Part shown: in pieces, positions 163-26,151 of the stretch
Position numbering within the stretch: position 1 is the first letter of the stretch
Layout: the number at the start of each line of letters is the position of its first letter
Assembly: GCA_035257485.1 (NCBI GenBank)
Contig: DATEWZ010000092.1
Span: 4,399-68,398, forward strand
Direction: 5' to 3'
Source of the DNA: Chthoniobacterales bacterium
GTDB taxonomy: Bacteria > Verrucomicrobiota > Verrucomicrobiia > Chthoniobacterales > UBA10450
DNA length: 64,000 nt
The notes under the pieces: model-generated
What the model was told of the DNA's origin: nothing
The model's database searches: none
Seen by the model: only the letters and a program-made list of their open reading frames with translations
Position numbers and translations under genes: made by a program

Positions 163-1077
163 CTACGCTGACGATGTCGATTTTCGTTCGATGATGACGA
201 GGAAAATCCCGCCGAGAACGGCGATCGACGCGATGATGTAACGCAGACTAATTGGCTCGCTGAGAAGGAGGATTCCTCCGGTCGCGACAAGAACGGGCGC
301 GCTCAATTGCACAACCGCCGCGCTCGTAGCTTTGATTTGCGGCAGCACCGTGTACCAAATCACATAACCGAGACCGGAAGTGATTGCGCCGGAAATGGCG
401 GCGTACGCAATGCCTAAAGCGTCGAGCTGCATTTGGCGCATCGCCAGGACGCTGACGAGCGCGGCGAATGGAACTGCGCGCAGAAAATTTCCCGTGGTCG
501 CGGCGATTGCGTCGCTCGCTCCTTTACCACGGATCGAATAAACGCCCCAGGCCAGGCCGGCGCTTAGCATCAGAATCGAACCGAGTAACGGCGGCGCTGA
601 GATTCCTGGAAAGACGAGGACAACGAGTCCACCGATCGCGATGATGAGACCCTCAATTTGAATTGCATCGAGTCGTTCGCCTTTCTGAAATCCCCAGAGG
701 ATCATCGTTGCCTGGACCGCGCCGAACAAAAGCAGCGCGCCAGTGCCCGCCGCGAGCGTGTTGTAAGCAAAGGAGAACGCAGCCGCGTAAGCGAACAGCG
801 CGAGCGCGGAGATCCAGTCGCCGCTCTCAAGTGACGAGTGACGTGTGACGGGTGACGAGCGAGCAGAACTATCAACTAAAGGCGCAGCCGTTCTATCAAC
901 TCTCAACCCTCTTGTTTGGAGAATTAGCCAGAGCGTGATCGCGCCTGAAAAAATGCGAACGAAAGTGAATGTCGCGGCGTCGATGCCAGTGTCGCGAAGC
1001 GCGGCGCGACAAAGGAGCGAGTTGCTCGCGAACGCGATCATCGCGAGCAGCGTGAGAATGAAGACGCGCGCTCTCAT
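163..1077 (-). CDS. EamA/DMT-family transporter
   Basis: 304-aa ORF with about 10 hydrophobic helices in two homologous halves, typical of the DMT superfamily. It carries an atypically long TM2-TM3 loop (RTAAPLVDSSARSSPVTRHSSLES) encoded by a heptamer repeat. Confidence 0.85.
   Translation of the reverse strand: MRARVFILTLLAMIAFASNSLLCRAALRDTGIDAATFTFVRIFSGAITLWLILQTRGLRVDRTAAPLVDSSARSSPVTRHSSLESGDWISALALFAYAAAFSFAYNTLAAGTGALLLFGAVQATMILWGFQKGERLDAIQIEGLIIAIGGLVVLVFPGISAPPLLGSILMLSAGLAWGVYSIRGKGASDAIAATTGNFLRAVPFAALVSVLAMRQMQLDALGIAYAAISGAITSGLGYVIWYTVLPQIKATSAAVVQLSAPVLVATGGILLLSEPISLRYIIASIAVLGGIFLVIIERKSTSSA
831..858. repeat. (GTGACGN)x4 tandem heptamer array lying in-frame inside the DMT transporter CDS
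   Basis: Direct read: GTGACGA GTGACGT GTGACGG GTGACGA. The same word array occurs intergenically at 18073-18100 and, inverted, at 28967-28987. Confidence 0.85.
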
Positions 1078-1090
1078 GCAAACGGCGTTG

Positions 1091-1513
1091 TCACTCGGCG
1101 TCGAATTTTGGTTTCTTGGATGATGTGCGTTTGTAGGTGCCGTCGGCCCTCACGTTGAATCCAAAACCGCACATCCCGTCTTGCGTCACGACTAATTTAC
1201 CGCCGGTGAACTTGAGCGTGATCTTGCATTCCTCTTCCGCGCCGTCCGGTTTGAAGGTCGCGGTATCGCCTTCGATTTTCGCAATTCCGCTGCCTTCGCC
1301 GGTATTGGCTGTTCGCTCGCCATTCCCGGTCTTGTATTCGTAAACTCCGGAGAACTCGATCTGCAATTTCTGTTGTCCGAGCGCCAGAATTTTGAATTCG
1401 TTGTTCCGATATTGCCAGGTTCCGTTCACTTGCGCGGCGGTCACCTCGTTTCCCGCCTCGACTCGCGCGATGATGGTGGCGCAGGCCGCGAGCGCGAACA
1501 GCATTTGTCTCAT
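1091..1513 (-). CDS. secreted hypothetical protein
   Basis: 140-aa ORF with an N-terminal signal peptide (MRQMLFALAACATIIARVEA). No family recognised. Confidence 0.6.
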   Translation of the reverse strand: MRQMLFALAACATIIARVEAGNEVTAAQVNGTWQYRNNEFKILALGQQKLQIEFSGVYEYKTGNGERTANTGEGSGIAKIEGDTATFKPDGAEEECKITLKFTGGKLVVTQDGMCGFGFNVRADGTYKRTSSKKPKFDAE

Positions 1514-1528
1514 AACATCGACATCGAA

Positions 1529-2266
1529 CTATTTCGCAGGCGAGATGAGGTAGATCACGTGAGCCTCTTGGCTGATGCTAACAGGTGCGAGGCGATATTC
1601 TGGCGGTGGTTCCGCTCGCGCCGCCGCCTCGGAGCCGCGGACACCTAGTCTGGTGATTTCGCCGAAAATCTTGCCTTCTATCTCTGCTGGGGAGATCGGT
1701 GTAACGGCGAATACAGCATCGATCTTCAGGTTCATTGGCTTGAGACTCTTTTCGGCCTTCGCGCGAGCATCTGCGAGAGCTTTGTCCCATAATTGCTCCT
1801 GTAGCTCCTTCTCTTTACTAAGGCCGCCCTCGACGCCTGAAAATTCCGCACCTTGAACACGAATCAGTTCGTCAGCGAGCTTAGGAAACGTCGCAACATC
1901 TCGGATCTTTATCTCAAAAGGGCGCGTCACTTTATAGCCAACAAGTTTGCCGTGGCCGCGTGAGTAGCCTTCCTCCTGCTCGAATTCGGGCTCGGAGCGA
2001 AGGTCTTCCGCAATAACATCGTTGTCCGCGATCTTTCGCTCCTTCAGCAAAGCGAAGATCTTGTTTGCTTTTGATTGCACGTCTTCGTTCGCTTTTGCTT
2101 GCTCAGGCGCGCGGCCGACGAGATCGAACTTGAGCGTCACGACGTCCGGTGACTTTTGCATTTCCGCTTTGCCCACCACGTAAATGTACGGTTTGTCCGG
2201 CACCCCGCCTTCGGCGAAGAGTGAAGTTGGAAGAACCAGCAGGAGGGAAAGAAGTAAACATTTCAT
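1529..2266 (-). CDS. periplasmic SIMPL/DUF541-like protein
   Basis: 245 aa with signal peptide MKCLLLSLLLVLPTSLFA. Size and alternating beta/alpha pattern resemble SIMPL-domain proteins. Family call is from memory only. Confidence 0.55.
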   Translation of the reverse strand: MKCLLLSLLLVLPTSLFAEGGVPDKPYIYVVGKAEMQKSPDVVTLKFDLVGRAPEQAKANEDVQSKANKIFALLKERKIADNDVIAEDLRSEPEFEQEEGYSRGHGKLVGYKVTRPFEIKIRDVATFPKLADELIRVQGAEFSGVEGGLSKEKELQEQLWDKALADARAKAEKSLKPMNLKIDAVFAVTPISPAEIEGKIFGEITRLGVRGSEAAARAEPPPEYRLAPVSISQEAHVIYLISPAK

Positions 2267-2312: not shown

Positions 2313-3692
2313 TCAAGTCGCGGCCGGTTTCTCGTCGGTCGGCGCGAGGAGATGACCGAAAATCTTGCCGGCGAGAAGAAAGATGATGCCCGCGACGCCG
2401 GCCAAGGCCGCGTGCAACAGCCAGAACCTCGGCGCCGGCATTGTTTCGAGGAAGCCGCCGATCCAGCCGACAAGGTTGTTGGCCGCGAAAAACGCCAAGT
2501 AATAAATTCCAATGATCGTCGCCGAGAGCGCGGCGGGAGCGACACGCGCGTAAAGGGCAAGTGAGACCGGAAACACGTTGGCGAATCCCGCGCTATTCAA
2601 AACGTGAAACGCAATCAGCCAGCCGATCGAAACATTTTTGCCAGTCTGGGCGGCGATGGTGGATCCGATGAAGAGCGAAAGCATTCCGGCCACGGCGATC
2701 AGACTGCCAATCGCGATCTTCATGATCTCCGCCGGTTCCCGGAATTTTTTCGCCCACAAGCGCCAAAACACGACCGCGATGAAAAGGAAACTGACCGAAA
2801 TGATCGAGTCGAGCGTGATCAACCACGTGGTCGGCATTTTCTTTCCGAAAAACGTGAGATCGGCGTGGTCCTGCGCCCAAACCAGATAAGCGTTGAAGAT
2901 TTGCTGATTGGGAATGATCGAGATGGTGAGAACCGGCAGGAGCACCAGCAAAATGACGATCGCCATTTTTTCCTGACGCATCAGCTTCGGTTTGGCGGCA
3001 TGTGCCGCTTTCTCTTCAACGACCGGCGAGTCCGGCGGCAGATATTTTCGGCCTAACAAATAGATCGCGAGACCGATCAACATTCCGACTCCGGCGGCAT
3101 CGAAGCCCCAGGCCCAGCCGACTTTTTCGCCGAGCGTGCCCGCGATGAGCGGCGCGGCAATGACGCCGGCGTTGATGAAGATGTAATAGATTTGAAACGC
3201 GTCCGCGCGGCGGTTGTCACCCGTCGCGTAGAGCGATCCGACCTGGCTGGCGAGATTGCCTTTGAAACAACCAACGCCGACCAAAAGGCAGACGAGTCCC
3301 AAAAGAAAGCTCACATCGAGCCCGACCAAAAATTGTCCGACTGCCATGAGACACGCGCCGATGGTGATGGTGAGGGTTCGACCGAGCCAGCGATCCGCGA
3401 TTAATCCGCCGATGATTGGCGTTAGATAAACCAGACCGGTGTAGAGACCGAAGATGGTCGAAGCGAGTGGTTGAACGTCGAGCGGTCCACGCATCCTTTC
3501 GAGCAAATGGCGAAGCGGACCAAAGCCGGCGATGTGTTCGATGTGGCCGGGATGCAGGACATAATTGACCATGAACAGCACCAGGAGCGCCTGCATTCCG
3601 TAATAGGAAAATCGCTCCCACGCTTCGGTGAACGCGATGTAACCGAGCCCGCGCGGATGTCCGAGAAAACTGCGGTCCTCTGGATTGTGCAT
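2313..3692 (-). CDS. POT/PTR2-family di-/tripeptide:proton symporter
   Basis: The N-terminal FLGHPRGLGYIAFTEAWERFSYYGMQALLVLFM is the PTR2 signature. 459 aa polytopic membrane protein. Confidence 0.9.
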   Translation of the reverse strand: MHNPEDRSFLGHPRGLGYIAFTEAWERFSYYGMQALLVLFMVNYVLHPGHIEHIAGFGPLRHLLERMRGPLDVQPLASTIFGLYTGLVYLTPIIGGLIADRWLGRTLTITIGACLMAVGQFLVGLDVSFLLGLVCLLVGVGCFKGNLASQVGSLYATGDNRRADAFQIYYIFINAGVIAAPLIAGTLGEKVGWAWGFDAAGVGMLIGLAIYLLGRKYLPPDSPVVEEKAAHAAKPKLMRQEKMAIVILLVLLPVLTISIIPNQQIFNAYLVWAQDHADLTFFGKKMPTTWLITLDSIISVSFLFIAVVFWRLWAKKFREPAEIMKIAIGSLIAVAGMLSLFIGSTIAAQTGKNVSIGWLIAFHVLNSAGFANVFPVSLALYARVAPAALSATIIGIYYLAFFAANNLVGWIGGFLETMPAPRFWLLHAALAGVAGIIFLLAGKIFGHLLAPTDEKPAAT

Positions 3693-5692: not shown

Positions 5693-6171
5693 AAAAGGCG
5701 CGACGGCTTTGGCGAAAGGGACTCGTTTTGACAATATCGATCTTATTGATCGGTGCGGAGACTGTCCCGGCCGAACCAGGACCGTTCGAGAAATTTTTTC
5801 GTAGCGTCAAGCGGGCGTTCACCGGGCCCCAGCAGCCGCAGCACAAATCAACGCGTCACAGCGGTCACAAGCAATCGACATCCACCGAAAACCCCTCGAC
5901 TACCGCATCAAACAACCAGACTCAGGGATCGAATACTCCTGATGCGAGCGCGAGTGGGCTCGGCGCGCCAAATCAACAGAATACCCGAACGGCCAGCCGC
6001 GCGACCTCTAAAAAAGGAGACGATCTTCCCTACGGAACGCCCGTGCCCGGCAAACAAGGTTTTGTGATGAGTCCTTTCTCGCCCAACAGCGGTTACATCG
6101 ATGTGCGCGGTTTTGCGCCCGGCACACCGGTGAAAGATCCTTACACCGGAAAAGTTTTTCTCACGCCGTAG
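5689..6171 (+). CDS. membrane-anchored/secreted low-complexity protein
   Basis: ATGA overlap with the upstream gene. N-terminal hydrophobic segment, S/T/N/Q-rich linker, conserved-looking C-terminal GFVMSPFSPNSGYIDVRGFAPGTPVKDPYTGKVF. Confidence 0.6.
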   Translation: MKKARRLWRKGLVLTISILLIGAETVPAEPGPFEKFFRSVKRAFTGPQQPQHKSTRHSGHKQSTSTENPSTTASNNQTQGSNTPDASASGLGAPNQQNTRTASRATSKKGDDLPYGTPVPGKQGFVMSPFSPNSGYIDVRGFAPGTPVKDPYTGKVFLTP

Positions 6172-8393: not shown

Positions 8394-8873
8394 ATGCGCG
8401 AACTGCTGTTCTATCACGGAATGAGACGCGCCTTGTGTATTGCGATGTTTGGCGTCCTAGCTGCCTCTGGCGCGCCCGAACTTTGTGCGCAAAAGAACCT
8501 CAAGCTGATTAAGGCGTTTTTGTCGACGAATAAAGAGCACACGCCGATGACGCAATTCTCTTCGGAGGTCCCGAAGATCAACGTCTTCTGGAAAGGCGAA
8601 GGGCTCGAGGTCGGCGATAAGATTCGTGCGGTTTTTGTCGCGGAAGACGTTGGCGAAGCCAATCCGAAAGAAACCAAAATCAGCGAGAAGGTGGTGATGG
8701 CTTTAAAGCAAAACCAGGAGAGTTCATTTTTTTTAGCGCGACCGGGCGGACGAACCTGGCCAATTGGCAAATACCGGCTCGATTTTTTTATCAATGATAA
8801 ACTCGCCCAAGTGGTGAAGTTCACCATCGCGCAGGGTCCGGCAATCGAGACTAAACCTCTCGGTTCGCCCTGA
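8394..8873 (+). CDS. secreted hypothetical protein
   Basis: 159 aa with an N-terminal hydrophobic signal-like segment (ALCIAMFGVLAASGA). No family recognised. Confidence 0.55.
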   Translation: MRELLFYHGMRRALCIAMFGVLAASGAPELCAQKNLKLIKAFLSTNKEHTPMTQFSSEVPKINVFWKGEGLEVGDKIRAVFVAEDVGEANPKETKISEKVVMALKQNQESSFFLARPGGRTWPIGKYRLDFFINDKLAQVVKFTIAQGPAIETKPLGSP

Positions 8874-8902
8874 CTTTTCAACGCCGCGACGTTGCGCTAG
8901 CT

Positions 8903-9802
8903 TTGTTGCCGATGTCCTGCGCAAAAATCGATCCAGCCCTGCATCAGCCGCACAAGCCGTCCTGGATCAAGGTCCGCTTGCCGTCGAATCCGGTTTTCTT
9001 TTCGACCAAGGCGCTGATTTCCGATCTGCGCCTGCACACCGTTTGTGAAAGCGCGCAATGCCCGAATCGCTGGGAATGTTGGAGCCAGGGCACAGCCACT
9101 TTCATGATCGCGGGCGATCGTTGCACGCGTGCCTGCGGATTTTGCGCGGTGACAACGGCGAAGCCGTTCGCGCTCGAAGAGGACGAACCGCAACGCGTCG
9201 CCGAAGCCGTCATGCGGATGAAATTGAAGCATGTTGTGATCACTTCTGTCGCGCGGGACGATTTGCAGGACGGCGGCGCTAACCATTTCGCGCGCGTTAT
9301 CACCGCGATTCGAAAAGCGGATCCGTCGATTGTTATAGAGGTTCTGGTTCCGGATTTTCACGCAGACGACGCGTGCATTCAGGCGGTGCTCGATGCCGGA
9401 CCCGAAATTTACAATCACAACATGGAAACGGTTGAGCGACTGACGCCGCTCGTGCGCTCACGCGCGAAATACCGGACTTCGCTAAAGGTTTTGGGACGCG
9501 CGAAAGGACTTTCGCCAAAAACGGTCACGAAAAGCGGCATCATGCTCGGGCTGGGCGAAACCGAACCGGAAATTTTCCAAACGATGGACGATTTACGCGA
9601 GGTCGGGTGTCAGGTCCTGACAATGGGCCAGTATCTGCGCCCGACGCCGAACCATTTGCCGGTGGTGGAATTCATCACACCGGAGCAATTCGATCTCTAC
9701 GGCGAGATCGCGCGCAAAAAGGGATTCGAACACGTCGCATCGGGGCCGCTCGTACGCAGCTCCTATCACGCGGCCGATTTTCATCCGGTTGTCCGCGATT
9801 GA
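8903..9802 (+). CDS. lipA: lipoyl synthase
   Basis: CESAQCPNRWECW and the radical-SAM motif CTRACGFCAV are the two LipA Fe-S cluster motifs. Confidence 0.95.
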   Translation: MLPMSCAKIDPALHQPHKPSWIKVRLPSNPVFFSTKALISDLRLHTVCESAQCPNRWECWSQGTATFMIAGDRCTRACGFCAVTTAKPFALEEDEPQRVAEAVMRMKLKHVVITSVARDDLQDGGANHFARVITAIRKADPSIVIEVLVPDFHADDACIQAVLDAGPEIYNHNMETVERLTPLVRSRAKYRTSLKVLGRAKGLSPKTVTKSGIMLGLGETEPEIFQTMDDLREVGCQVLTMGQYLRPTPNHLPVVEFITPEQFDLYGEIARKKGFEHVASGPLVRSSYHAADFHPVVRD

Positions 9803-20356: not shown

Positions 20357-21574
20357 TTAGAGCAAGTGACCCAGCTTGGTCTTCTTGGTTGCGAGATACT
20401 TCTCGTTGTGCGGGTTCGATTCGCACCGAATCGGCACCTGCTCAACCATCTCCAGCCCATAACCTTCCAGGCCAACGACTTTCTTGGGATTATTCGTCAG
20501 GAACCGAAATTGTCTGACGCCGAGATCGAAGAGAATTTGCGCGCCCAATCCGTAATCGCGCAGGTCGGCCGGAAGCCCGAGCTTTGTATTGGCTTCAACC
20601 GTGTCGAGTCCTTGCTCCTGCAATTTGTAGGCGTGGATTTTTGCCGCCAGCCCAATCCCACGACCTTCCTGACGCATGTAAACCAGCACGCCGTTGCCTT
20701 CCTCGGAAATTTGGCGCAGCGCCGCATGCAATTGATTCCCGCAATCGCACCGTCGCGAACCGAACACATCGCCGGTGAGACATTCGCTGTGCACCCGCAC
20801 CAGCGTCGGCTTGTCCTTGTCGATCTTACCTTTCACGAGCGCGAGATGATGCATCCCGTCGAGCAGCGATCGATACATGTGCAAATCGAAATCGCCGTAA
20901 TCGGTCGGCAGTTTAATAATCTGCTCCAGCTCGACCAGCTTTTCCCGCTGACGTCGATACGCGATCAAACTTTGGATCGTGCAAATCTTCAGCGCGTGTT
21001 TCTTGCGGAATTCCATCAGCTCCGGCAAACGCGCCATCGTTCCGTCGTCGTGCAAAATTTCACAAAGCACGCCTGCCGGTTGGAGTCCGGCCATGCGCGC
21101 AAGATCGACCGCCGCTTCCGTGTGACCCGCGCGTCGCAACACGCCGCCGTCTTGAGCGCGCAACGGAAAAATGTGGCCGGGCTGCGTGAGATCTTCCGGC
21201 GATGAATGCGGATTCGCGAGCGCGAGAATTGTCGTCGCGCGATCGTAGGCGCTGATGCCCGTCGTCACTCCACGCGCTGCGTCCACCGAAACGGTGAAAT
21301 CGGTCCGCTGCGATTCGCGATTTCGCGTCACCATTCGTCTCAATCCGAGCTGCTCCGCGCGCTCGTTCGAAATCGGAACACAAATCAAACCGCGACCGTG
21401 CATCGCCATGAAGTTCACCGCTTCCGGCGTCACTTTCTCGGCCGCGATCACCAGATCGCCTTCGTTCTCGCGATCGGCGTCGTCAGTCACGATGACAATG
21501 CGGCCCTTGGCGATATCGCTCACGACATCGTCAATCTGGTCGAATTGAAACGTCTCGTTCGCTTTCGTGATCAT
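20357..21574 (-). CDS. ribBA: bifunctional 3,4-dihydroxy-2-butanone-4-phosphate synthase / GTP cyclohydrolase II
   Basis: [11 protein letters not shown] (DHBP synthase) and [18 protein letters not shown] (GCH II zinc site). Confidence 0.95.
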
Positions 21575-21824
21575 TCAGGGAAGCAATATCTTACCGTTCT
21601 CTCGGAGCGTCAGCAACCGCGGTAATCGATCGCTTCTCTCTTAATCTCAATCAATTTTAGCCGCGAATTACACGAATTCTTGAATCGTAGGGCAGGCGTT
21701 GCTGATCACAAAATCCGACAAGCGATTTCAGCAAGATCAAAGAGACTAGGAATTTGCTCGACCGTCAGCGATCGAAAGGCGTATTGATAGCGGCAAGCAC
21801 TCCCCCGACTGAAATATCTCCCCT

Positions 21825-22574
21825 ATGAAAAAGAACTTTGTCCTCCTCGCGATTGTTCCCTTGTCTCTCGTCGGTTGCGCCTTCGATTCCGAAATGCCCG
21901 ATTATCAGTCTGCAATTCGGAGGCAGGGTTATGTCGCTTATTACCAGCCGGTCGGAAATCCGCGCAATGTGAAGGACTGGGACAAATTCGGGCCGGGAAC
22001 AATTCTGCGCGCCAGTAAAACGCAGGAGTATTATTATCCCGCCAATAAGTTGATCGGACCGGCCGGTGTTCGCGCCGCAATGGAGCGGAAGAACGCATCG
22101 CCGGTCAGTTTGTTCAGCGGCAAACGAGTTTCCGGTTACGACATTGACGGCAAGGGCGGCTGGACTTTGGACGCGGCCAACAAAATCGGAGCGTCTTTGA
22201 ATTTGAAGAGCGTGACGAACGTGGACATTCAATTCGGCAACGCTTGGAAAGCCAATCCGAAAGGCGAGGGGGATTGGCACCGCCTCGTCGCCGCAAAGCA
22301 AGGGAAGTTCGATTCGAATTGCCGCGAATCGTTGCGCAAAGGCAATTTCGTCGTCGTTCAGAATGCGATCTGGACCGACAGCATCCGTTATTACTTCAAA
22401 CAAAACAAAGAAGGCGGCGGCTCGGCCGATTATAAATTATCCGATCAAGAGATCGCCAACTTGAGCGCGAAAGGATACAAAGTGATCGAGGGCGGCGTGC
22501 AGGTCGATCAGCCGCGCTTTATCGCTTTCACCCCGCTACCGGGCGTAGACAACGATCTTGAAGGCGGCCGGTAG
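21825..22574 (+). CDS. beta-rich lipoprotein, possible gasdermin-like pore-forming protein (cassette gene 1)
   Basis: Textbook lipoprotein signal MKKNFVLLAIVPLSLVGC (lipobox LVGC, Cys18). The mature ~230 aa are Gly/Asn/Lys-rich with alternating hydrophobic strands. Segments KGNFVVVQNAIWTDSIRYYF and PRFIAFTPLP, plus a short acidic tail, resemble the gasdermin N-domain layout as I remember it. The fold call is unverified. Confidence 0.7.
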   Translation: MKKNFVLLAIVPLSLVGCAFDSEMPDYQSAIRRQGYVAYYQPVGNPRNVKDWDKFGPGTILRASKTQEYYYPANKLIGPAGVRAAMERKNASPVSLFSGKRVSGYDIDGKGGWTLDAANKIGASLNLKSVTNVDIQFGNAWKANPKGEGDWHRLVAAKQGKFDSNCRESLRKGNFVVVQNAIWTDSIRYYFKQNKEGGGSADYKLSDQEIANLSAKGYKVIEGGVQVDQPRFIAFTPLPGVDNDLEGGR

Positions 22575-22588
22575 AGCGCCGATTTTCT

Positions 22589-23551
22589 ATGCCTCCAGCA
22601 TCTCGCGGAAAACTAAAAGTCACGGTCGATGGACTGAATGTTAGAAAATCAGGTTCGATAAAGGGTGCGATCATCGGTTCGCTTAACCAGGGCGACGTTG
22701 TTGATTGGATCGGCTCCTCCAAAGATTCGAACTGGTACAAAATCAAAACGAATGGACTGACCGGATGGTCGTCGCATCGCTTTTTGTTGCCGATTGCTGC
22801 GCCGGCTGCGCCGCATGCTTACGACGCGATCGTTCAGATGGCTGGCAATTCGGCGATCGCCGGTTACTCCTGGAAAAACCGCGGAACGGCTCCTCGCGGC
22901 TACATCAAAGGGATGGCGCTCGTTTATGCGAGAGTCTATTGCAAACTAAAGGCAGGCGATCCATTCGCGCTCGAAATGGCCAAAGCGAATACCGGGAACG
23001 CGGCAAAAGATGCCCTCGCGTGGTATGCGCAAATTTTCCAAAGCGTCGGCATGAGCAACGAAGCCGACGGTGTAAACACATTGCGACACTTGTTCGTTCT
23101 GCTCATTGGGCTCGGTATGCGTGAAAGCTCGGGCCGATATTGCGAAGGCCGTGACCGGTCGGCCAGCAACACCGGCGCCGACACCGCGGAAGCCGGAATG
23201 TTTCAAGTCAGCTTTGATGCGCGCGTCGCGAGCCCGCTTCTTCCGCAACTTTTTCAGCAATACCTGCCTAAACGCACGAGCGGCTTTGTCGAAGTGTTCC
23301 GGGAAGGCGTTCCCTGCACCGCGAAAGATTGGGAATACTTTGGGACCGGTCCCGGCAGAGATTTTCAACAGCTGTGTAAGGAATGTCCCGCCTTTACCGC
23401 GGAATTCACCGCTGTCGGCTTGCGCAACATTCGCAAACATTGGGGACCAATCATCAATCGTGCCGCTGAGGTTCGGCCGGAGGCGAATCTGATGCTCACG
23501 CAAGTCGAGCACATTGTTGATAGCGCGAACCTTTGTCCGGCGGTGACATAG
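22589..23551 (+). CDS. SH3b-domain plus lysozyme-like (E-S motif) protein, no signal peptide (cassette gene 2)
   Basis: The N-terminal GLNVRKSGSIKGAIIGSLNQGDVVDWIGSSKDSNWYKIKTNGLTGWSSHRFL is a bacterial SH3 domain. The C-terminal domain has GLGMRESSGRYCEGRD...AEAGMFQVS, reminiscent of GH23/GH19-type lysozyme-like catalytic motifs. Confidence 0.7.
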   Translation: MPPASRGKLKVTVDGLNVRKSGSIKGAIIGSLNQGDVVDWIGSSKDSNWYKIKTNGLTGWSSHRFLLPIAAPAAPHAYDAIVQMAGNSAIAGYSWKNRGTAPRGYIKGMALVYARVYCKLKAGDPFALEMAKANTGNAAKDALAWYAQIFQSVGMSNEADGVNTLRHLFVLLIGLGMRESSGRYCEGRDRSASNTGADTAEAGMFQVSFDARVASPLLPQLFQQYLPKRTSGFVEVFREGVPCTAKDWEYFGTGPGRDFQQLCKECPAFTAEFTAVGLRNIRKHWGPIINRAAEVRPEANLMLTQVEHIVDSANLCPAVT

Positions 23552-23587
23552 CCCCCAGCGAACGGCCGACGAAAAGGGATTTCTTCG

Positions 23588-24367
23588 ATGCCTAGGATCA
23601 ACACTCGCTCACAAAAATGGTACGGTTGGTTGCCGGATCTTCCCGACCAGCGCGATTTCGCTTACTCAGTCATCAAACCGCGGATCGCGAAATTGCCGAG
23701 CAAGGTCGATCTCCGGAAAAAATGTCCGCCGATTGAAAATCAGGGCGACATCGGGAGTTGCACCGCGCACGCGCTCGTCGGCGCGCTCGAGTTTCTCGAG
23801 CTCAAGGACGGCGGCAAGTTTGTCGATCTTAGCCGGCTCTTTGTTTACTACAATGAGCGCGCGATCGAAGGAACGATCAAACAGGACAGCGGCGCATTTC
23901 TGCGCGACGGAATCAAATCGCTCGCCAAACAAGGCGTTTGTCCGGAAGCGGATTGGCCGTATCACGCGAGACAGTTTACCAGAAAGCCGGCGGCAAAATG
24001 TTACTCCGCCGCTAAGAAACATGTGATCATTTCCTATCATCGCCTTAGCTCGCTCAATGAAATGCGCACCTGTCTCGCCGACGGATTTCCGTTCGTGTTC
24101 GGCTTCACCGTTTACGCGGGGTTCGAATCGGCCGAGGTCGCGAAGACCGGCGTTCTCAATCTGCCTGTCCCAAAAGAAAAAGTTCAGGGCGGCCACGCCG
24201 TCATGGCCGTTGGTTACGATGACTCAGCGAAGCGATTCATCATCCGCAATTCGTGGGACACCGATTGGGGAATGAAAGGCTATTTCACCATGCCCTACGA
24301 TTATCTCGATCCCGACCACAACCTCGCCGACGACTTCTGGACTATCCGTCTGTGCGAAGACGAATAA
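23588..24367 (+). CDS. papain-family (C1) cysteine peptidase, no signal peptide or prodomain (cassette gene 3)
   Basis: NQGDIGSCTAHA (oxyanion Gln52, Cys58), GGHAVMAVGYD (His203) and IIRNSWDTDWGMKGY (Asn221). N-terminal WLPDLPDQRDFAY as in bacterial C1 peptidases. Confidence 0.9.
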   Translation: MPRINTRSQKWYGWLPDLPDQRDFAYSVIKPRIAKLPSKVDLRKKCPPIENQGDIGSCTAHALVGALEFLELKDGGKFVDLSRLFVYYNERAIEGTIKQDSGAFLRDGIKSLAKQGVCPEADWPYHARQFTRKPAAKCYSAAKKHVIISYHRLSSLNEMRTCLADGFPFVFGFTVYAGFESAEVAKTGVLNLPVPKEKVQGGHAVMAVGYDDSAKRFIIRNSWDTDWGMKGYFTMPYDYLDPDHNLADDFWTIRLCEDE

Positions 24368-24414
24368 CAATTTGTGCTAGACGAAAAACCTTTGCCTAAT
24401 TCTCGTTAGACGTA

Positions 24415-24834
24415 ATGCGCGCACCGATTGTGTTCCGCGGATTACTTTTGCTGCTCGCCATGTTTGAGCTTCTTCTTCTCGTGTTGGCACTACCTCAGCT
24501 TGGCGCCCTCGATACTACTATACCGCATGCCGCTGTTCTTGGAATGGCGATTGCCGTTTGTGTTTTGCTGTTAGTGCCATTGATCGGCTTGTGGTTTTAT
24601 CAGCGGTGGGCGCGAATGGCCTTCCTAGTCATCCTTGTAATCGCTGTTTTGGACAGTTTTCATAGGAGCCGTCTTCATCTCAGCGTTCACCTTCCATTCT
24701 TCTTTGGAGCGATACGCTTTTTGCAACACGGCTTCTACGGTGCAGTCACAGCTATGATGTTTTTACCACCCACCAGCGAGTTGTTTAGCAGGCGGTCTAA
24801 CCAGTCGCTCGAGCCAATGTCTGACCCGCGGTAA
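24415..24834 (+). CDS. small 4-TM membrane protein (cassette gene 4)
   Basis: 139 aa with four hydrophobic helices and a hydrophilic C-tail. No family recognised. Confidence 0.6.
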   Translation: MRAPIVFRGLLLLLAMFELLLLVLALPQLGALDTTIPHAAVLGMAIAVCVLLLVPLIGLWFYQRWARMAFLVILVIAVLDSFHRSRLHLSVHLPFFFGAIRFLQHGFYGAVTAMMFLPPTSELFSRRSNQSLEPMSDPR

Positions 24835-24869
24835 AATTTCCAGATGATGACTTCAACACTGCCCTATGG

Positions 24870-24894
24870 CGGCTGATCTCGGTTCCGTCAGCCG
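24870..24894. terminator. stem-loop between convergent cassette gene 4 and deoA
   Basis: CGGCTGA (24870-24876) pairs with TCAGCCG (24888-24894), with an 11-nt loop. No clear U-tract. Confidence 0.3.
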
Positions 24895-24912
24895 TGGCTC
24901 AGCTTGTTCTCG

Positions 24913-26151
24913 TTAGCCCACTTCGACCGCTTTTTCGAGAAGGGGAGTGATGTTCACGATCGACCGCTCGTTGCGCGCGTGGATCATGAAGAGCGGCTCA
25001 TCAAGATCGACAGCCTCGCCGACTTTTTTGATTTTCGAAAAGCCGACCGCGAAATCAATTGGATCGTCTGTTCTTTGACGACCCGCGCCGAGTTGAACTG
25101 ACGCGCGACCAATCAATTCGGCGTCGATTTTCTTCACCTTGCCCGCAGATTTCGCCTTCCACGGTTCGATGATTATCGCGCGATGTTGCTCGAGAAGTTT
25201 TTCGAGCAGCGTGGCATCGCCATCCTGGGCGTAAACGAGCGAGACAAATTTCTTCCACGCGGTTCCGTCCTTCAGGCGTTTCTCCAGTTGCGCTCGCGGC
25301 GTCTCCGAGACTTTCTCGGCAAGATCGACAATTAACTTGATCAGGTCCGGTGGACCGCCGCCCTGCAAAATTTCTACGCACTCGGCAATCTCGAGCGCGT
25401 TTCCAACGGTGCGCCCGAGCGGCTCGTCCATCGGATTGAGGAGATAGGACGTCTTCACTTTCATCGATTCGCCAACGCTCTTCATAGCGTCGGCCAGCTT
25501 TTGCGCGTCCTCTTTCGTTTTCATGAACGCCCCGCTGCCGAATTTCACATCGAGCACCAGCCGATCGAGATTTTCCGCGAGCTTCTTGCTCATGATGCTC
25601 GCCACGATGAGCGGTTGGGACGGCACGGTGCCGGTCACGTCGCGCAACGCATAAAGCTTTTTGTCGGCCGGACAGATGTCCTCGGTCTGGCCGATCATGA
25701 AGAGGCCGATCTTTTCCAGCTGTTTGAGCGCGCGCTTTTCGTCGAGATGAACGTTGAAACCGGGTATGCTTTCGAGTTTGTCCAACGTTCCGCCGGTAAT
25801 TCCGAGACCACGTCCGGAAATCTTCGGCACCCAGACTTCGTCGCAGGCCAGCAACGGCGCGAGCACAATCGAAACTTTGTCGCCCACGCCGCCCGTCGAG
25901 TGCTTGTCGATCTTTGGTGGCGAATCTTCCGGATATTTCAACACCCGGCCGCTGTGCATCATCGCGTCGGTCAGGTGATACGTTTCCGTGGGGGACATTC
26001 CCTGGAAATAAACCGCCATCGCCAGCGCGCTCATCTGGTAGTCCGGGATCTCGCCGAGCGTGAATTCTTCGACCAGGCTCTTGATTTCCTTGGTCGTCAG
26101 CGGATGGCCGTCCCGCTTTTTCTCGATGAGCGAAGAAACGTGCATTGGCAA
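24913..26151 (-). CDS. deoA: thymidine/pyrimidine-nucleoside phosphorylase
   Basis: IEKKRDGHPLT...DYQMSALAMAVYFQGM...KHSTGGVGDKVS are classic motifs. Confidence 0.93.
   Translation of the reverse strand: MPMHVSSLIEKKRDGHPLTTKEIKSLVEEFTLGEIPDYQMSALAMAVYFQGMSPTETYHLTDAMMHSGRVLKYPEDSPPKIDKHSTGGVGDKVSIVLAPLLACDEVWVPKISGRGLGITGGTLDKLESIPGFNVHLDEKRALKQLEKIGLFMIGQTEDICPADKKLYALRDVTGTVPSQPLIVASIMSKKLAENLDRLVLDVKFGSGAFMKTKEDAQKLADAMKSVGESMKVKTSYLLNPMDEPLGRTVGNALEIAECVEILQGGGPPDLIKLIVDLAEKVSETPRAQLEKRLKDGTAWKKFVSLVYAQDGDATLLEKLLEQHRAIIIEPWKAKSAGKVKKIDAELIGRASVQLGAGRQRTDDPIDFAVGFSKIKKVGEAVDLDEPLFMIHARNERSIVNITPLLEKAVEVG

Follow-up and report, generated by a model that had tools for sequence, protein, structure and literature searches.

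Analysis of a 64,000-nucleotide stretch of genomic DNA from a Chthoniobacterales bacterium (contig DATEWZ010000092.1; referred to below, at its full length, as the window) from the metagenome-assembled genome of a soil verrucomicrobium revealed a cassette of four genes, the first encoding a gasdermin homolog with a lipoprotein signal and the second an endolysin-like protein. In our preferred interpretation, to which we assign a probability of slightly less than one half (about 0.48), genes 1 and 2 constitute a two-part module of gasdermin plus endolysin for lysis or release, one that acts independently of a protease and is not located on a prophage. The C1 peptidase encoded by gene 3 and the small membrane protein encoded by gene 4 are probably bystanders on the same transcript; at most, they would be cargo. 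The analysis was computational throughout, signal peptides were judged from sequence pattern and hydrophobicity, and 41 loci (L001 and following) were collected for synteny.

Gene 1 encodes a gasdermin homolog

Direct searches with gene 1 resulted in nothing significant in Pfam, NCBIfam, PHROGs, PADLOC, or the PDB sequences. A first-pass annotation, made from the sequence alone, had proposed a gasdermin-type fold, and this was borne out by structure prediction as well as by sequence matches of its relatives. The AlphaFold2 (AF2) model of gene 1 reached a predicted local distance difference test (pLDDT) of 81.8 and a predicted template modeling score (pTM) of 0.78, with 26 homologs used. All ten best Foldseek matches of this model in the PDB were gasdermins, six of them at E <= 0.001, and the top six were chains of bacterial gasdermins (bGSDMs; E 1.3e-5 to 3.2e-4, probability 1.0, template modeling (TM) scores 0.36-0.47). 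Among the matches were bGSDM structures 7n52, 7n51, and 7n50 (E 1e-5 to 8e-5, probability 1.0, TM scores 0.40-0.47), and the ten best spanned the bGSDMs of Runella, Vitiosangium, and Bradyrhizobium, bGSDM pore structures, GSDME, and a Trichoplax GSDM. On its own, this model-based evidence is suggestive of a gasdermin.

On the sequence level, matches to the PADLOC bGSDM model PDLC02986 were obtained for 13 of 25 extended-family members, with a best E value of 2.3e-9 for P0329, which also showed a weak precomputed Pfam Bact_GSDM match, and 2.7e-7 for P0301. For relative P0289, which is 34% identical to gene 1, the E values were 2e-46 with the gene-1 profile and 6.6e-8 with the bGSDM hidden Markov model (HMM). 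Comparison of the extended-family profile with all PDB sequences yielded bGSDMs as the four best matches (8sl0, 7n51, 9v2s, and 7n52; E 0.003-0.007), including those of Vitiosangium and Runella. The sequence match of gene 1 to bGSDM models is therefore a transitive one, via relatives and family profile. Since these matches close the gap left by the modest TM scores, we accept gene 1 as a gasdermin homolog with the fold of the gasdermin N-terminal domain, a twisted antiparallel beta-sheet with peripheral helices, and regard this homology as solid.

The family comprises 45 clusters among 5.8 billion proteins, and a search of 1.84 billion proteins with the family profile resulted in 47 representatives (E<=1e-3). 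Its members were found exclusively in metagenomes, from soil and elsewhere, and in metagenome-assembled genomes, the two named sources being Chthoniobacterales and Candidatus Udaeobacter, and every copy with a source name is annotated as 'hypothetical'. Because of this small size, origin, and annotation, the family has been overlooked so far.

In one close relative, gene 1 is apparently split into two open reading frames (ORFs), P0341 (86 aa) and P0342 (154 aa), each on a contig of 17,869 bp; a frameshift or pseudogene may underlie the split, which would fit a toxic or dispensable gene. A further ORF (P0045, L031:147-881) is chimeric. Only its last c. 68 residues match gene 1 (79% identity), while its N-terminal part is unrelated to gene 1 and starts with a hydrophobic segment, a structure suggestive of recombination at the boundary of the module. 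In L011-L013, single-linkage clustering pointed to relatives of gene 1 as well, but these were rejected as artefacts of antisense ORFs within ribBA.

Lipoprotein signal and short C-terminus of gene 1

As already noticed in the first-pass annotation, gene 1 carries a classical lipoprotein signal, MKKNFVLLAIVPLSLVG followed by C18. Its one hydrophobic segment covers residues 4-24, and the pLDDT of the AF2 model fell below 50 at residues 1-5 and 12-22. An N-terminal signal peptide that ends in a Cys was recognized in all family members scanned. This lipobox Cys is invariant in 25/25 members of the extended family, being the sole invariant residue of the N-terminal region, and in most of them it is preceded by a canonical lipobox (LVGC, LAAC, LSGC, etc.). 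Based on this pattern, gene 1 would be a Sec-exported lipoprotein anchored on Cys18 in the periplasm. The residue following the Cys (position +2) is Ala in gene 1 and Asp in no family member; according to the +2 rule of E. coli, Ala in this position leads to sorting to the outer membrane.

At the other end of the protein, positions 126-230 of the family profile align to residues 108-214 of the 268 residues of the Runella bGSDM. Past this region, gene 1 has only c. 19 residues compared with 54 in Runella, and c. 12 residues follow the last strand predicted in the AF2 model. Judged from these alignment extents, a C-terminal inhibitory peptide, c. 20-40 aa long in bGSDMs, appears to be absent from gene 1, because its C-terminus is too short to leave room for a peptide of the Runella type. 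The C-terminal tails of distant members P0289, P0314, and P0328-P0331 are 20-35 aa longer.

Murein hydrolases adjacent to gene-1 homologs

For analysis of the gene neighborhood, 13 independent loci with at least 1 kb of downstream sequence each were counted, with the ribBA-deoA lineage of the window as one of them; the contigs of P0329 and P0292 were too short for context. A murein hydrolase adjoins the gene-1 homolog in seven of the 13, down to gene-1 identities of 25-34% (Table 1). As a rough estimate, assuming that about 0.5% of genes encode murein hydrolases, such an adjacency would arise by chance with P ~1e-10, and we consider the association solid. Six hydrolase families were identified in this slot (GH75-like, GH46, CHAP, Amidase_3, M15, and SH3b-X), four of which match endolysin PHROGs. 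Apart from gene 2, five more of these hydrolases possess no hydrophobic N-terminus, and none was recognized by eye in the two M15 enzymes. The commonest hydrolase beside gene 1 is a GH75-like domain (fungal chitosanase family) with the motif DADGANGQ and no signal peptide, found in L001, L003, L014, L026, L027, and L038 (e.g., L001:10102-10791), either alone or fused to PG_binding_1 and CHAP.

A membrane-protein family of 111-332 aa with the N-terminus MLxxLNLxIGLxFxYLLFSL, here called cluster 9, was found directly downstream of gene-1 homologs in four loci and revealed no Pfam or PHROG match. In the window it is missing, and genes 1 and 2 are separated by a gap of only 14 bp. The module may include cluster 9 as a third component. 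Remnants of it, 24-30 aa in length, were detected in three contigs that represent two hydrolase-free loci (L016-L018), which suggests that these are decayed modules.

The hydrolase-free loci, six in total, have only housekeeping-type neighbors such as methyltransferases, a CDP-alcohol phosphatidyltransferase, and a TPR protein. Together with the ribBA-deoA interval, which spans 2.6-7.9 kb and carries unrelated contents in related genomes, they favor the view that there is no functional unit at all, i.e., that four unrelated accessory genes were gathered in a recombination hotspot and gene 1 serves an unrelated role, e.g., in envelope maintenance. The hydrolase adjacency in seven independent loci, which survives replacement of the hydrolase, the cluster 9 remnants in L016-L018, and the distance of only 14 bp from gene 1 to gene 2 argue against such a coincidence and render it unlikely.

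Endolysin-like protein encoded by gene 2

The N-terminal SH3b domain of gene 2 that had been annotated at first pass was recovered by Pfam, and its fold matched SH3b domains of endolysins and autolysins in Foldseek; likewise, no hydrophobic N-terminus was found in gene 2, in agreement with the absence of an export signal noted there. The C-terminal all-alpha domain was modeled confidently (pLDDT 87), and the phrog_33367 family it belongs to bears the function label 'unknown'. In 30 homologs of gene 2, GLGMRES (E179-S180) and E-x-G-x-F-Q were recognized as invariant motifs, and their 'RES' and 'GxFQ' parts may recall motifs I and II of soluble lytic transglycosylases (SLT). An assignment of the domain to the SLT/GH23 lytic transglycosylases was not supported by any Pfam, PDB, or fold match. 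The term 'endolysin-like' is justified by architecture and context, and the C-domain is putatively muralytic; the lysozyme-like domain originally proposed is a hypothesis, with neither a lysozyme nor an SLT match on the family or fold level.

Homologs of the C-domain are widespread (2073 matches in many phyla) and often fused to Amidase_2 or Amidase_3. Gene 2 homologs with identities of 55-60% occur across Verrucomicrobia, Chloroflexota, Competibacteraceae, and cyanobacteria, and this high conservation suggests that they spread horizontally. Elsewhere they stand alone, followed by a small unrelated gene (L007:6001-6945, L009:6001-6945), and some are fused to Amidase_2, Amidase_3, or Ig-like repeats.

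A search of phage genomes revealed homologs of the C-domain in Bdellovibrio phages only; in phage MAC3UK, the homolog ends the late operon, two genes past a transmembrane protein. A remnant of a prophage lysis cassette consisting of holin, endolysin, and spanin-type lipoprotein could account for this lysis-like position of the phage proteins, for the match to phrog_33367, for the endolysin PHROGs matched by neighboring hydrolases, and for the order of lipoprotein, transmembrane protein, and hydrolase, which mirrors a lysis cassette. We consider it highly improbable, however, given that the cassette is flanked by conserved, syntenic housekeeping genes, no structural or integrase genes were found nearby, and no tRNA gene was found in the window. 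Moreover, gene 1 gave no match in 50,697 phage genomes or IMG/VR (close-alignment scan) and is a gasdermin homolog, not a spanin. A known prophage lysis cassette, which the first-pass annotation had named as a possible refutation, can accordingly be set aside on account of the housekeeping flanks and the absence of gene 1 from these phage collections.

The ribBA-deoA interval and the C1 peptidase

In the first-pass annotation, the four genes were proposed as a candidate protease-linked module in which the C1 peptidase could activate the gasdermin, and conservation of the gene order in related genomes was proposed as a check. The order was found only in near-identical contigs, namely L024 and a 7.7-kb contig carrying both P0001 and P0333, so that a conserved four-gene unit was rejected. 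Comparison of related genomes (L003, L011, L012, L013, and positions 21575-24912 of the window) showed that the interval between ribBA and deoA is hypervariable and that the C1 peptidase is its only constant gene. Orthologs of the peptidase occur in this interval without gene 1 in L011, L012, and L013, with different neighbors in each (Table 1). Outside the ribBA-deoA lineage, no C1 peptidase was found beside gene-1 homologs in any locus with enough flanking sequence. Members of the lineage share gene 1 and the peptidase at 87-100% identity but carry different genes in the slot separating the two and also after the peptidase. Because the peptidase occurs without gene 1, gene 1 occurs without the peptidase, and the slot between them is exchanged, the four genes do not constitute a conserved unit, and the protease is probably not dedicated to the gasdermin.

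In two of the loci without gene 1, other exported proteins are encoded at its position. L012 harbors a helical lipoprotein of 285 aa with lipobox LNGC upstream of the peptidase (L012:4692-5549), and L013 a protein of 370 aa (L013:4837-5949) that starts with a signal peptide, ends in Phe, and looks like an outer-membrane protein. A MjaV-like (PF27324) gene is present upstream in L003 and L011.

Regarding the peptidase itself, the first-pass assignment to C1 peptidases proved correct. Gene 3 matched Peptidase_C1 with E 3.3e-21 (76.8 bits against a cut-off of 20.7), all of the catalytic residues Q52, C58, H203, and N221 are present, and there is no signal peptide. Alignment with xylellain of Xylella fastidiosa (PDB 3OIS; E 4.5e-66 over residues 6-255) includes the N-terminal extension, and the two show no notable difference. 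The first c. 35 residues of gene 3 can be aligned to an N-terminal part of xylellain which we take to act as a short pro-region; due to this alignment, the claim that gene 3 lacks an inhibitory prodomain and is constitutively active is doubtful. Gene 3 is thus an ordinary short C1A peptidase of the 'short bacterial xylellain-type', a recognized class (PMC10380794). With more than 8000 homologs, its family is about 170 times larger than that of gene 1 (c. 47), and it is probably not a dedicated part of the module.

These results bear directly on a protease-activated gasdermin death module, in which gene 3 would cleave the product of gene 1 or gene 2 and thereby cause pore formation and lysis, e.g., in abortive infection. 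Canonical bGSDMs are activated by a neighboring protease (PMC10989679), gene 1 is a homolog of them, and the peptidase gene, two positions further downstream, is probably part of the same transcript. Furthermore, a trypsin-domain protein is encoded in the L004 cluster, and the longer C-terminal tails of P0289, P0314, and P0328-P0331 could be inhibitory. Nevertheless, the occurrence of the peptidase at the same locus without gene 1, the reverse situation in all adequately flanked loci beyond the lineage, and the very different family sizes speak against this model. Since gene 1 carries a Sec signal and gene 3 has no signal peptide, the two proteins would also end up in different compartments, the inhibitory tail of gene 1 is apparently missing, and no PADLOC system was matched. 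No conserved adjacent protease was found for gene 1, the trypsin-domain protein in L004, located three genes away, being the sole other case. Given the synteny, the compartments, the short C-terminus, and a gene 4 without relatives, we regard activation of the gasdermin by the C1 peptidase as distinctly unlikely and the protease-linked unit as not supported.

The exchange of hydrolases within the lineage led us to retain an antagonistic weapon as the main rival. Here, a gasdermin on the cell surface or on outer-membrane vesicles would perforate competitors, the hydrolases would be co-delivered effectors, and gene 4 or cluster 9 would provide immunity or export factors. At least three types of hydrolase (SH3b-X; GH75-like+PG_binding_1+CHAP; shorter GH75 forms with or without PG_binding_1) replace each other while gene 1 remains 89-100% identical, as is typical of polymorphic effector loci. 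Gene 4 and the unrelated gene at its position in L003 change along with the hydrolase type, homologs of gene 2 elsewhere are stand-alone genes with a small gene following, and the +2 residue, not being Asp, favors sorting to the outer membrane. On the other hand, the hydrolases carry no export signal and no secretion-system genes lie beside them, no recognizable immunity families or toxin-delivery domains were found, and relatives of gene 4 were absent from the fetched loci. On balance, we consider a weapon rather unlikely, yet worth keeping in mind.

Proposed mechanism

For the lysis or release module formed by genes 1 and 2, we infer the following mechanism. The module would have been inserted directly upstream of a resident C1A peptidase gene, at a variable spot between ribBA and deoA. 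Its gasdermin would be exported by Sec, anchored via lipids at Cys18, and reside in the periplasm; given the missing inhibitory peptide, it would be controlled by expression (transcription) and export, not by a protease. Once the operon is switched on, the anchored gasdermin might oligomerize and perforate the producer's inner membrane, attacked from the periplasm, its outer membrane, or both. This would bring the cytoplasmic hydrolase to the peptidoglycan or the exterior, following the logic of holin and endolysin or of colicin lysis proteins, and the outcome would be lysis or release of cell contents plus hydrolase. In most relatives, the two genes are separated by a cluster 9 gene, which is missing in the window.

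Several points weigh against this interpretation. Gene 1 alone did not match the PADLOC bGSDM HMM at E<=1, and its TM scores against bGSDMs are modest (0.40-0.47). By the +2 rule, gene 1 would be sorted to the outer membrane, which by itself offers no exit for a cytoplasmic hydrolase. The C-domain of gene 2 gave no Pfam match at E<=10 and, as a profile, no match to PDB sequences; Foldseek with the full-length model, where SH3b dominated both runs, returned SH3b matches only and none for the C-domain. The enzymes neighboring gene 1 in L004 carry signal peptides, and in 6/13 loci gene 1 occurs without a hydrolase. Pore formation, target membrane, and trigger are points that we infer, and the fast swapping of hydrolases in one lineage suits an antagonistic arms race better than simple self-lysis.

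Comparison with known systems

To our knowledge, all gasdermins described so far, from bacteria to humans, are cytosolic and depend on a protease for release from autoinhibition. The bGSDMs among them lack a signal peptide and are palmitoylated in the cytoplasm on Cys3/4; a C-terminal peptide keeps them inactive until an adjacent protease of the caspase-like, trypsin-like, or subtilisin-like type activates them (PMC10989679). With the bGSDM-protease systems of Runella, Bradyrhizobium, and Vitiosangium (7n50, 7n51, 7n52, and 8sl0), gene 1 shares the predicted fold and profile homology, a size near that of the active N-terminal pore-forming fragment, and a lipidated N-terminal Cys, the lipidation being predicted for gene 1. 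In contrast to them, the Cys of gene 1 lies in a Sec/signal peptidase II lipobox, which would place the protein in the periplasm, the inhibitory tail is seemingly absent, and the recurring neighbor is a murein hydrolase instead of a protease. As a bGSDM, gene 1 thus displays fold and homology, but neither the cytoplasmic location nor a conserved protease partner. Tentatively, the family might be seen as a new clade of bGSDMs, consisting of triacylated, tail-less, and protease-free lipoproteins on the periplasmic side that possibly replace holin and spanin in a chromosomal, non-phage lysis or secretion module with signal-less hydrolases as swappable cargo.

Phage holin-endolysin-spanin cassettes and type 10 secretion systems, which are holin/endolysin-dependent, have in common with the module a signal-less endolysin-like hydrolase beside a predicted membrane-perforating protein, a small transmembrane protein, and a lipoprotein. 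They differ in that the module is located off phage and its lipoprotein is a gasdermin homolog and not an o-spanin. A search for PHROG lysis matches yielded none for gene 1, gene 4, cluster 9, or the other transmembrane proteins, and no holin family was recognized. Lysis lipoproteins of colicins and other bacteriocins likewise stand beside a signal-less protein bound to leave the cell, with release via permeabilization of the envelope. Mature colicin lysis proteins are peptides of about 30 aa acting through OmpLA, whereas gene 1 displays a pore-former fold of 231 aa. Judged by these comparisons, the module would resemble phage lysis cassettes, type 10 secretion, and colicin lysis proteins in function without being a member of any of them.

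Full-text literature searches, incomplete in coverage, resulted in no report of lipoprotein, periplasmic, or endolysin-linked gasdermins. If an exported, lipid-anchored, apparently tail-less clade with endolysin-like enzymes as partners does exist, the gasdermins would possess another topology and another regulatory logic, and their pores would have been put to use in protein release or bacteriolysis with no need for proteolytic activation of the immune type. This would also bear on the question whether gasdermins originated as lysis and release devices or as immune executioners, and would represent a new route for the release of signal-less cell-wall hydrolases from Gram-negative bacteria.

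Organization of the cassette and further observations

The ORF listing confirmed four co-directional genes at the coordinates annotated before, with intergenic gaps of 14 bp (genes 1-2), 36 bp (genes 2-3), and 47 bp (genes 3-4). The location between ribBA and deoA was verified as well, since orthologs of the flanking genes in L003, L011, and L012 carry the expected domains DHBP_synthase+GTP_cyclohydro2 and Glycos_transf_3+PYNP_C. As genes 1-3 have numerous conserved homologs and gene 4 forms a cluster of seven members at 90% identity, all four ORFs are considered real genes. The 14-bp gap suggests co-transcription of genes 1 and 2, and a terminator scan predicted no terminator between the genes of the cassette. 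Of the stem-loop described as closing the cassette, the inverted repeat is present, with a 7-bp stem (24870-24876, cggctga; 24888-24894, tcagccg) and a loop of 11 nt; it lacks a T-run and, since it was not called in the terminator scan, is weak evidence of a terminator.

The GC content of the cassette (0.50-0.57) shows no striking difference from the flanks, and its context is neither that of a phage nor of a defense island. In line with the first-pass annotation, in which the gene combination was not recognized as a described system, 0 families were obtained at E<=1 for all four proteins with the PADLOC-DB v2 models. In the whole 64-kb window, 0 tRNA genes and 0 Rfam families at the gathering threshold were detected, including no call of a flavin mononucleotide (FMN) riboswitch upstream of ribBA.

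Table 1. Coordinates of features in the window and genes neighboring gene-1 homologs or C1 peptidase orthologs in related loci.
Locus	Feature	Position	Strand	Description
Window	ribBA	20357-21574	-	405 aa; flanks cassette
Window	Gene 1	21825-22574	+	249 aa; HJX98386.1 'hypothetical protein'; lipoprotein-type gasdermin homolog
Window	Gene 1, signal peptide (aa 1-17) and lipobox L-V-G-C18	21825-21878	+	Predicted from sequence pattern and hydrophobicity
Window	Gene 2	22589-23551	+	320 aa; endolysin-like, no signal peptide; variable hydrolase slot
Window	Gene 2, SH3b (SH3_3) domain, aa 14-66	22628-22786	+	Pfam SH3_3, E 1.7e-11
Window	Gene 2, C-terminal all-alpha domain, aa ~78-320	22820-23548	+	phrog_33367, E 3.3e-51; putative muralytic
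Window	Gene 3	23588-24367	+	259 aa; xylellain-type short C1A cysteine peptidase
Window	Gene 4	24415-24834	+	139 aa; HJX98389.1 'hypothetical protein'; small membrane protein
Window	Hairpin between gene 4 and deoA	24870-24894		Inverted repeat, weak
Window	deoA	24913-26151	-	412 aa; pyrimidine-nucleoside (thymidine) phosphorylase; flanks cassette, convergent with gene 4
Window, L003, L014, L026	Hydrolase slot, ribBA-deoA lineage			Four hydrolase variants
Window, L024	Hydrolase slot			SH3b-X
L003	Hydrolase slot			GH75-like+PG_binding_1+CHAP
L014	Hydrolase slot			PG_binding_1+GH75
L026	Hydrolase slot			GH75-like protein of ~205 aa
L001/L006/L015	Hydrolase beside gene-1 homolog			GH75-like
L027	Hydrolase beside gene-1 homolog			GH75-like+PG_binding_1+CHAP; 61% identical to L003 enzyme, gasdermins only ~59% identical to that of window
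L031	Hydrolase beside gene-1 homolog			PG_binding_1+GH46
L004/L005/L022	Hydrolase beside gene-1 homolog			Amidase_3, further exported enzymes, trypsin-domain protein
L038	Hydrolase beside gene-1 homolog			Peptidase_M15_3, then GH75-like; gasdermin only 34% identical
L040	Hydrolase beside gene-1 homolog			Peptidase_M15_3; gasdermin only 25% identical
L001	Cluster 9	8757-9092		Directly downstream of gene-1 homolog
L027	Cluster 9	2706-3632		Directly downstream of gene-1 homolog
L031	Cluster 9	891-1889		Directly downstream of gene-1 homolog
L038	Cluster 9	5810-6110		Directly downstream of gene-1 homolog
L016	Cluster 9 remnant	1303-1374		
L017	Cluster 9 remnant	2005-2076		
L018	Cluster 9 remnant	5907-5996		
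L011	Peptidase neighbors			Chagasin-type Inhibitor_I42 directly after peptidase, then lipocalin, 697-aa dockerin protein
L012	Peptidase neighbors			285-aa lipoprotein, 130-aa protein
L013	Peptidase neighbors			106-aa and 370-aa proteins, DUF6632

Gene 4 had been described as a small protein with four transmembrane segments that could be holin-like. A small transmembrane protein with three to four hydrophobic segments was indeed found, but no holin family was recognized, and searches of the Pfam, NCBIfam, PADLOC, and PHROGs libraries yielded no family match. Relatives of gene 4 were detected neither in any fetched locus nor after the gene 2 homologs of other phyla (L007, L009). In L003, an unrelated transmembrane protein of 145 aa is encoded at the position of gene 4; it was not found again after the homologous hydrolase in L027.

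Two further observations concern the surroundings of gene 1 in other loci. In four loci, a response-regulator gene encoded on the other strand lies upstream of gene 1. L004 (9943-11770), as well as L005 and L022, harbors four tandem or inverted paralogs of c. 130-155 aa with an N-terminal transmembrane segment and 39-45% mutual identity, situated downstream of the Amidase_3 and trypsin cluster.

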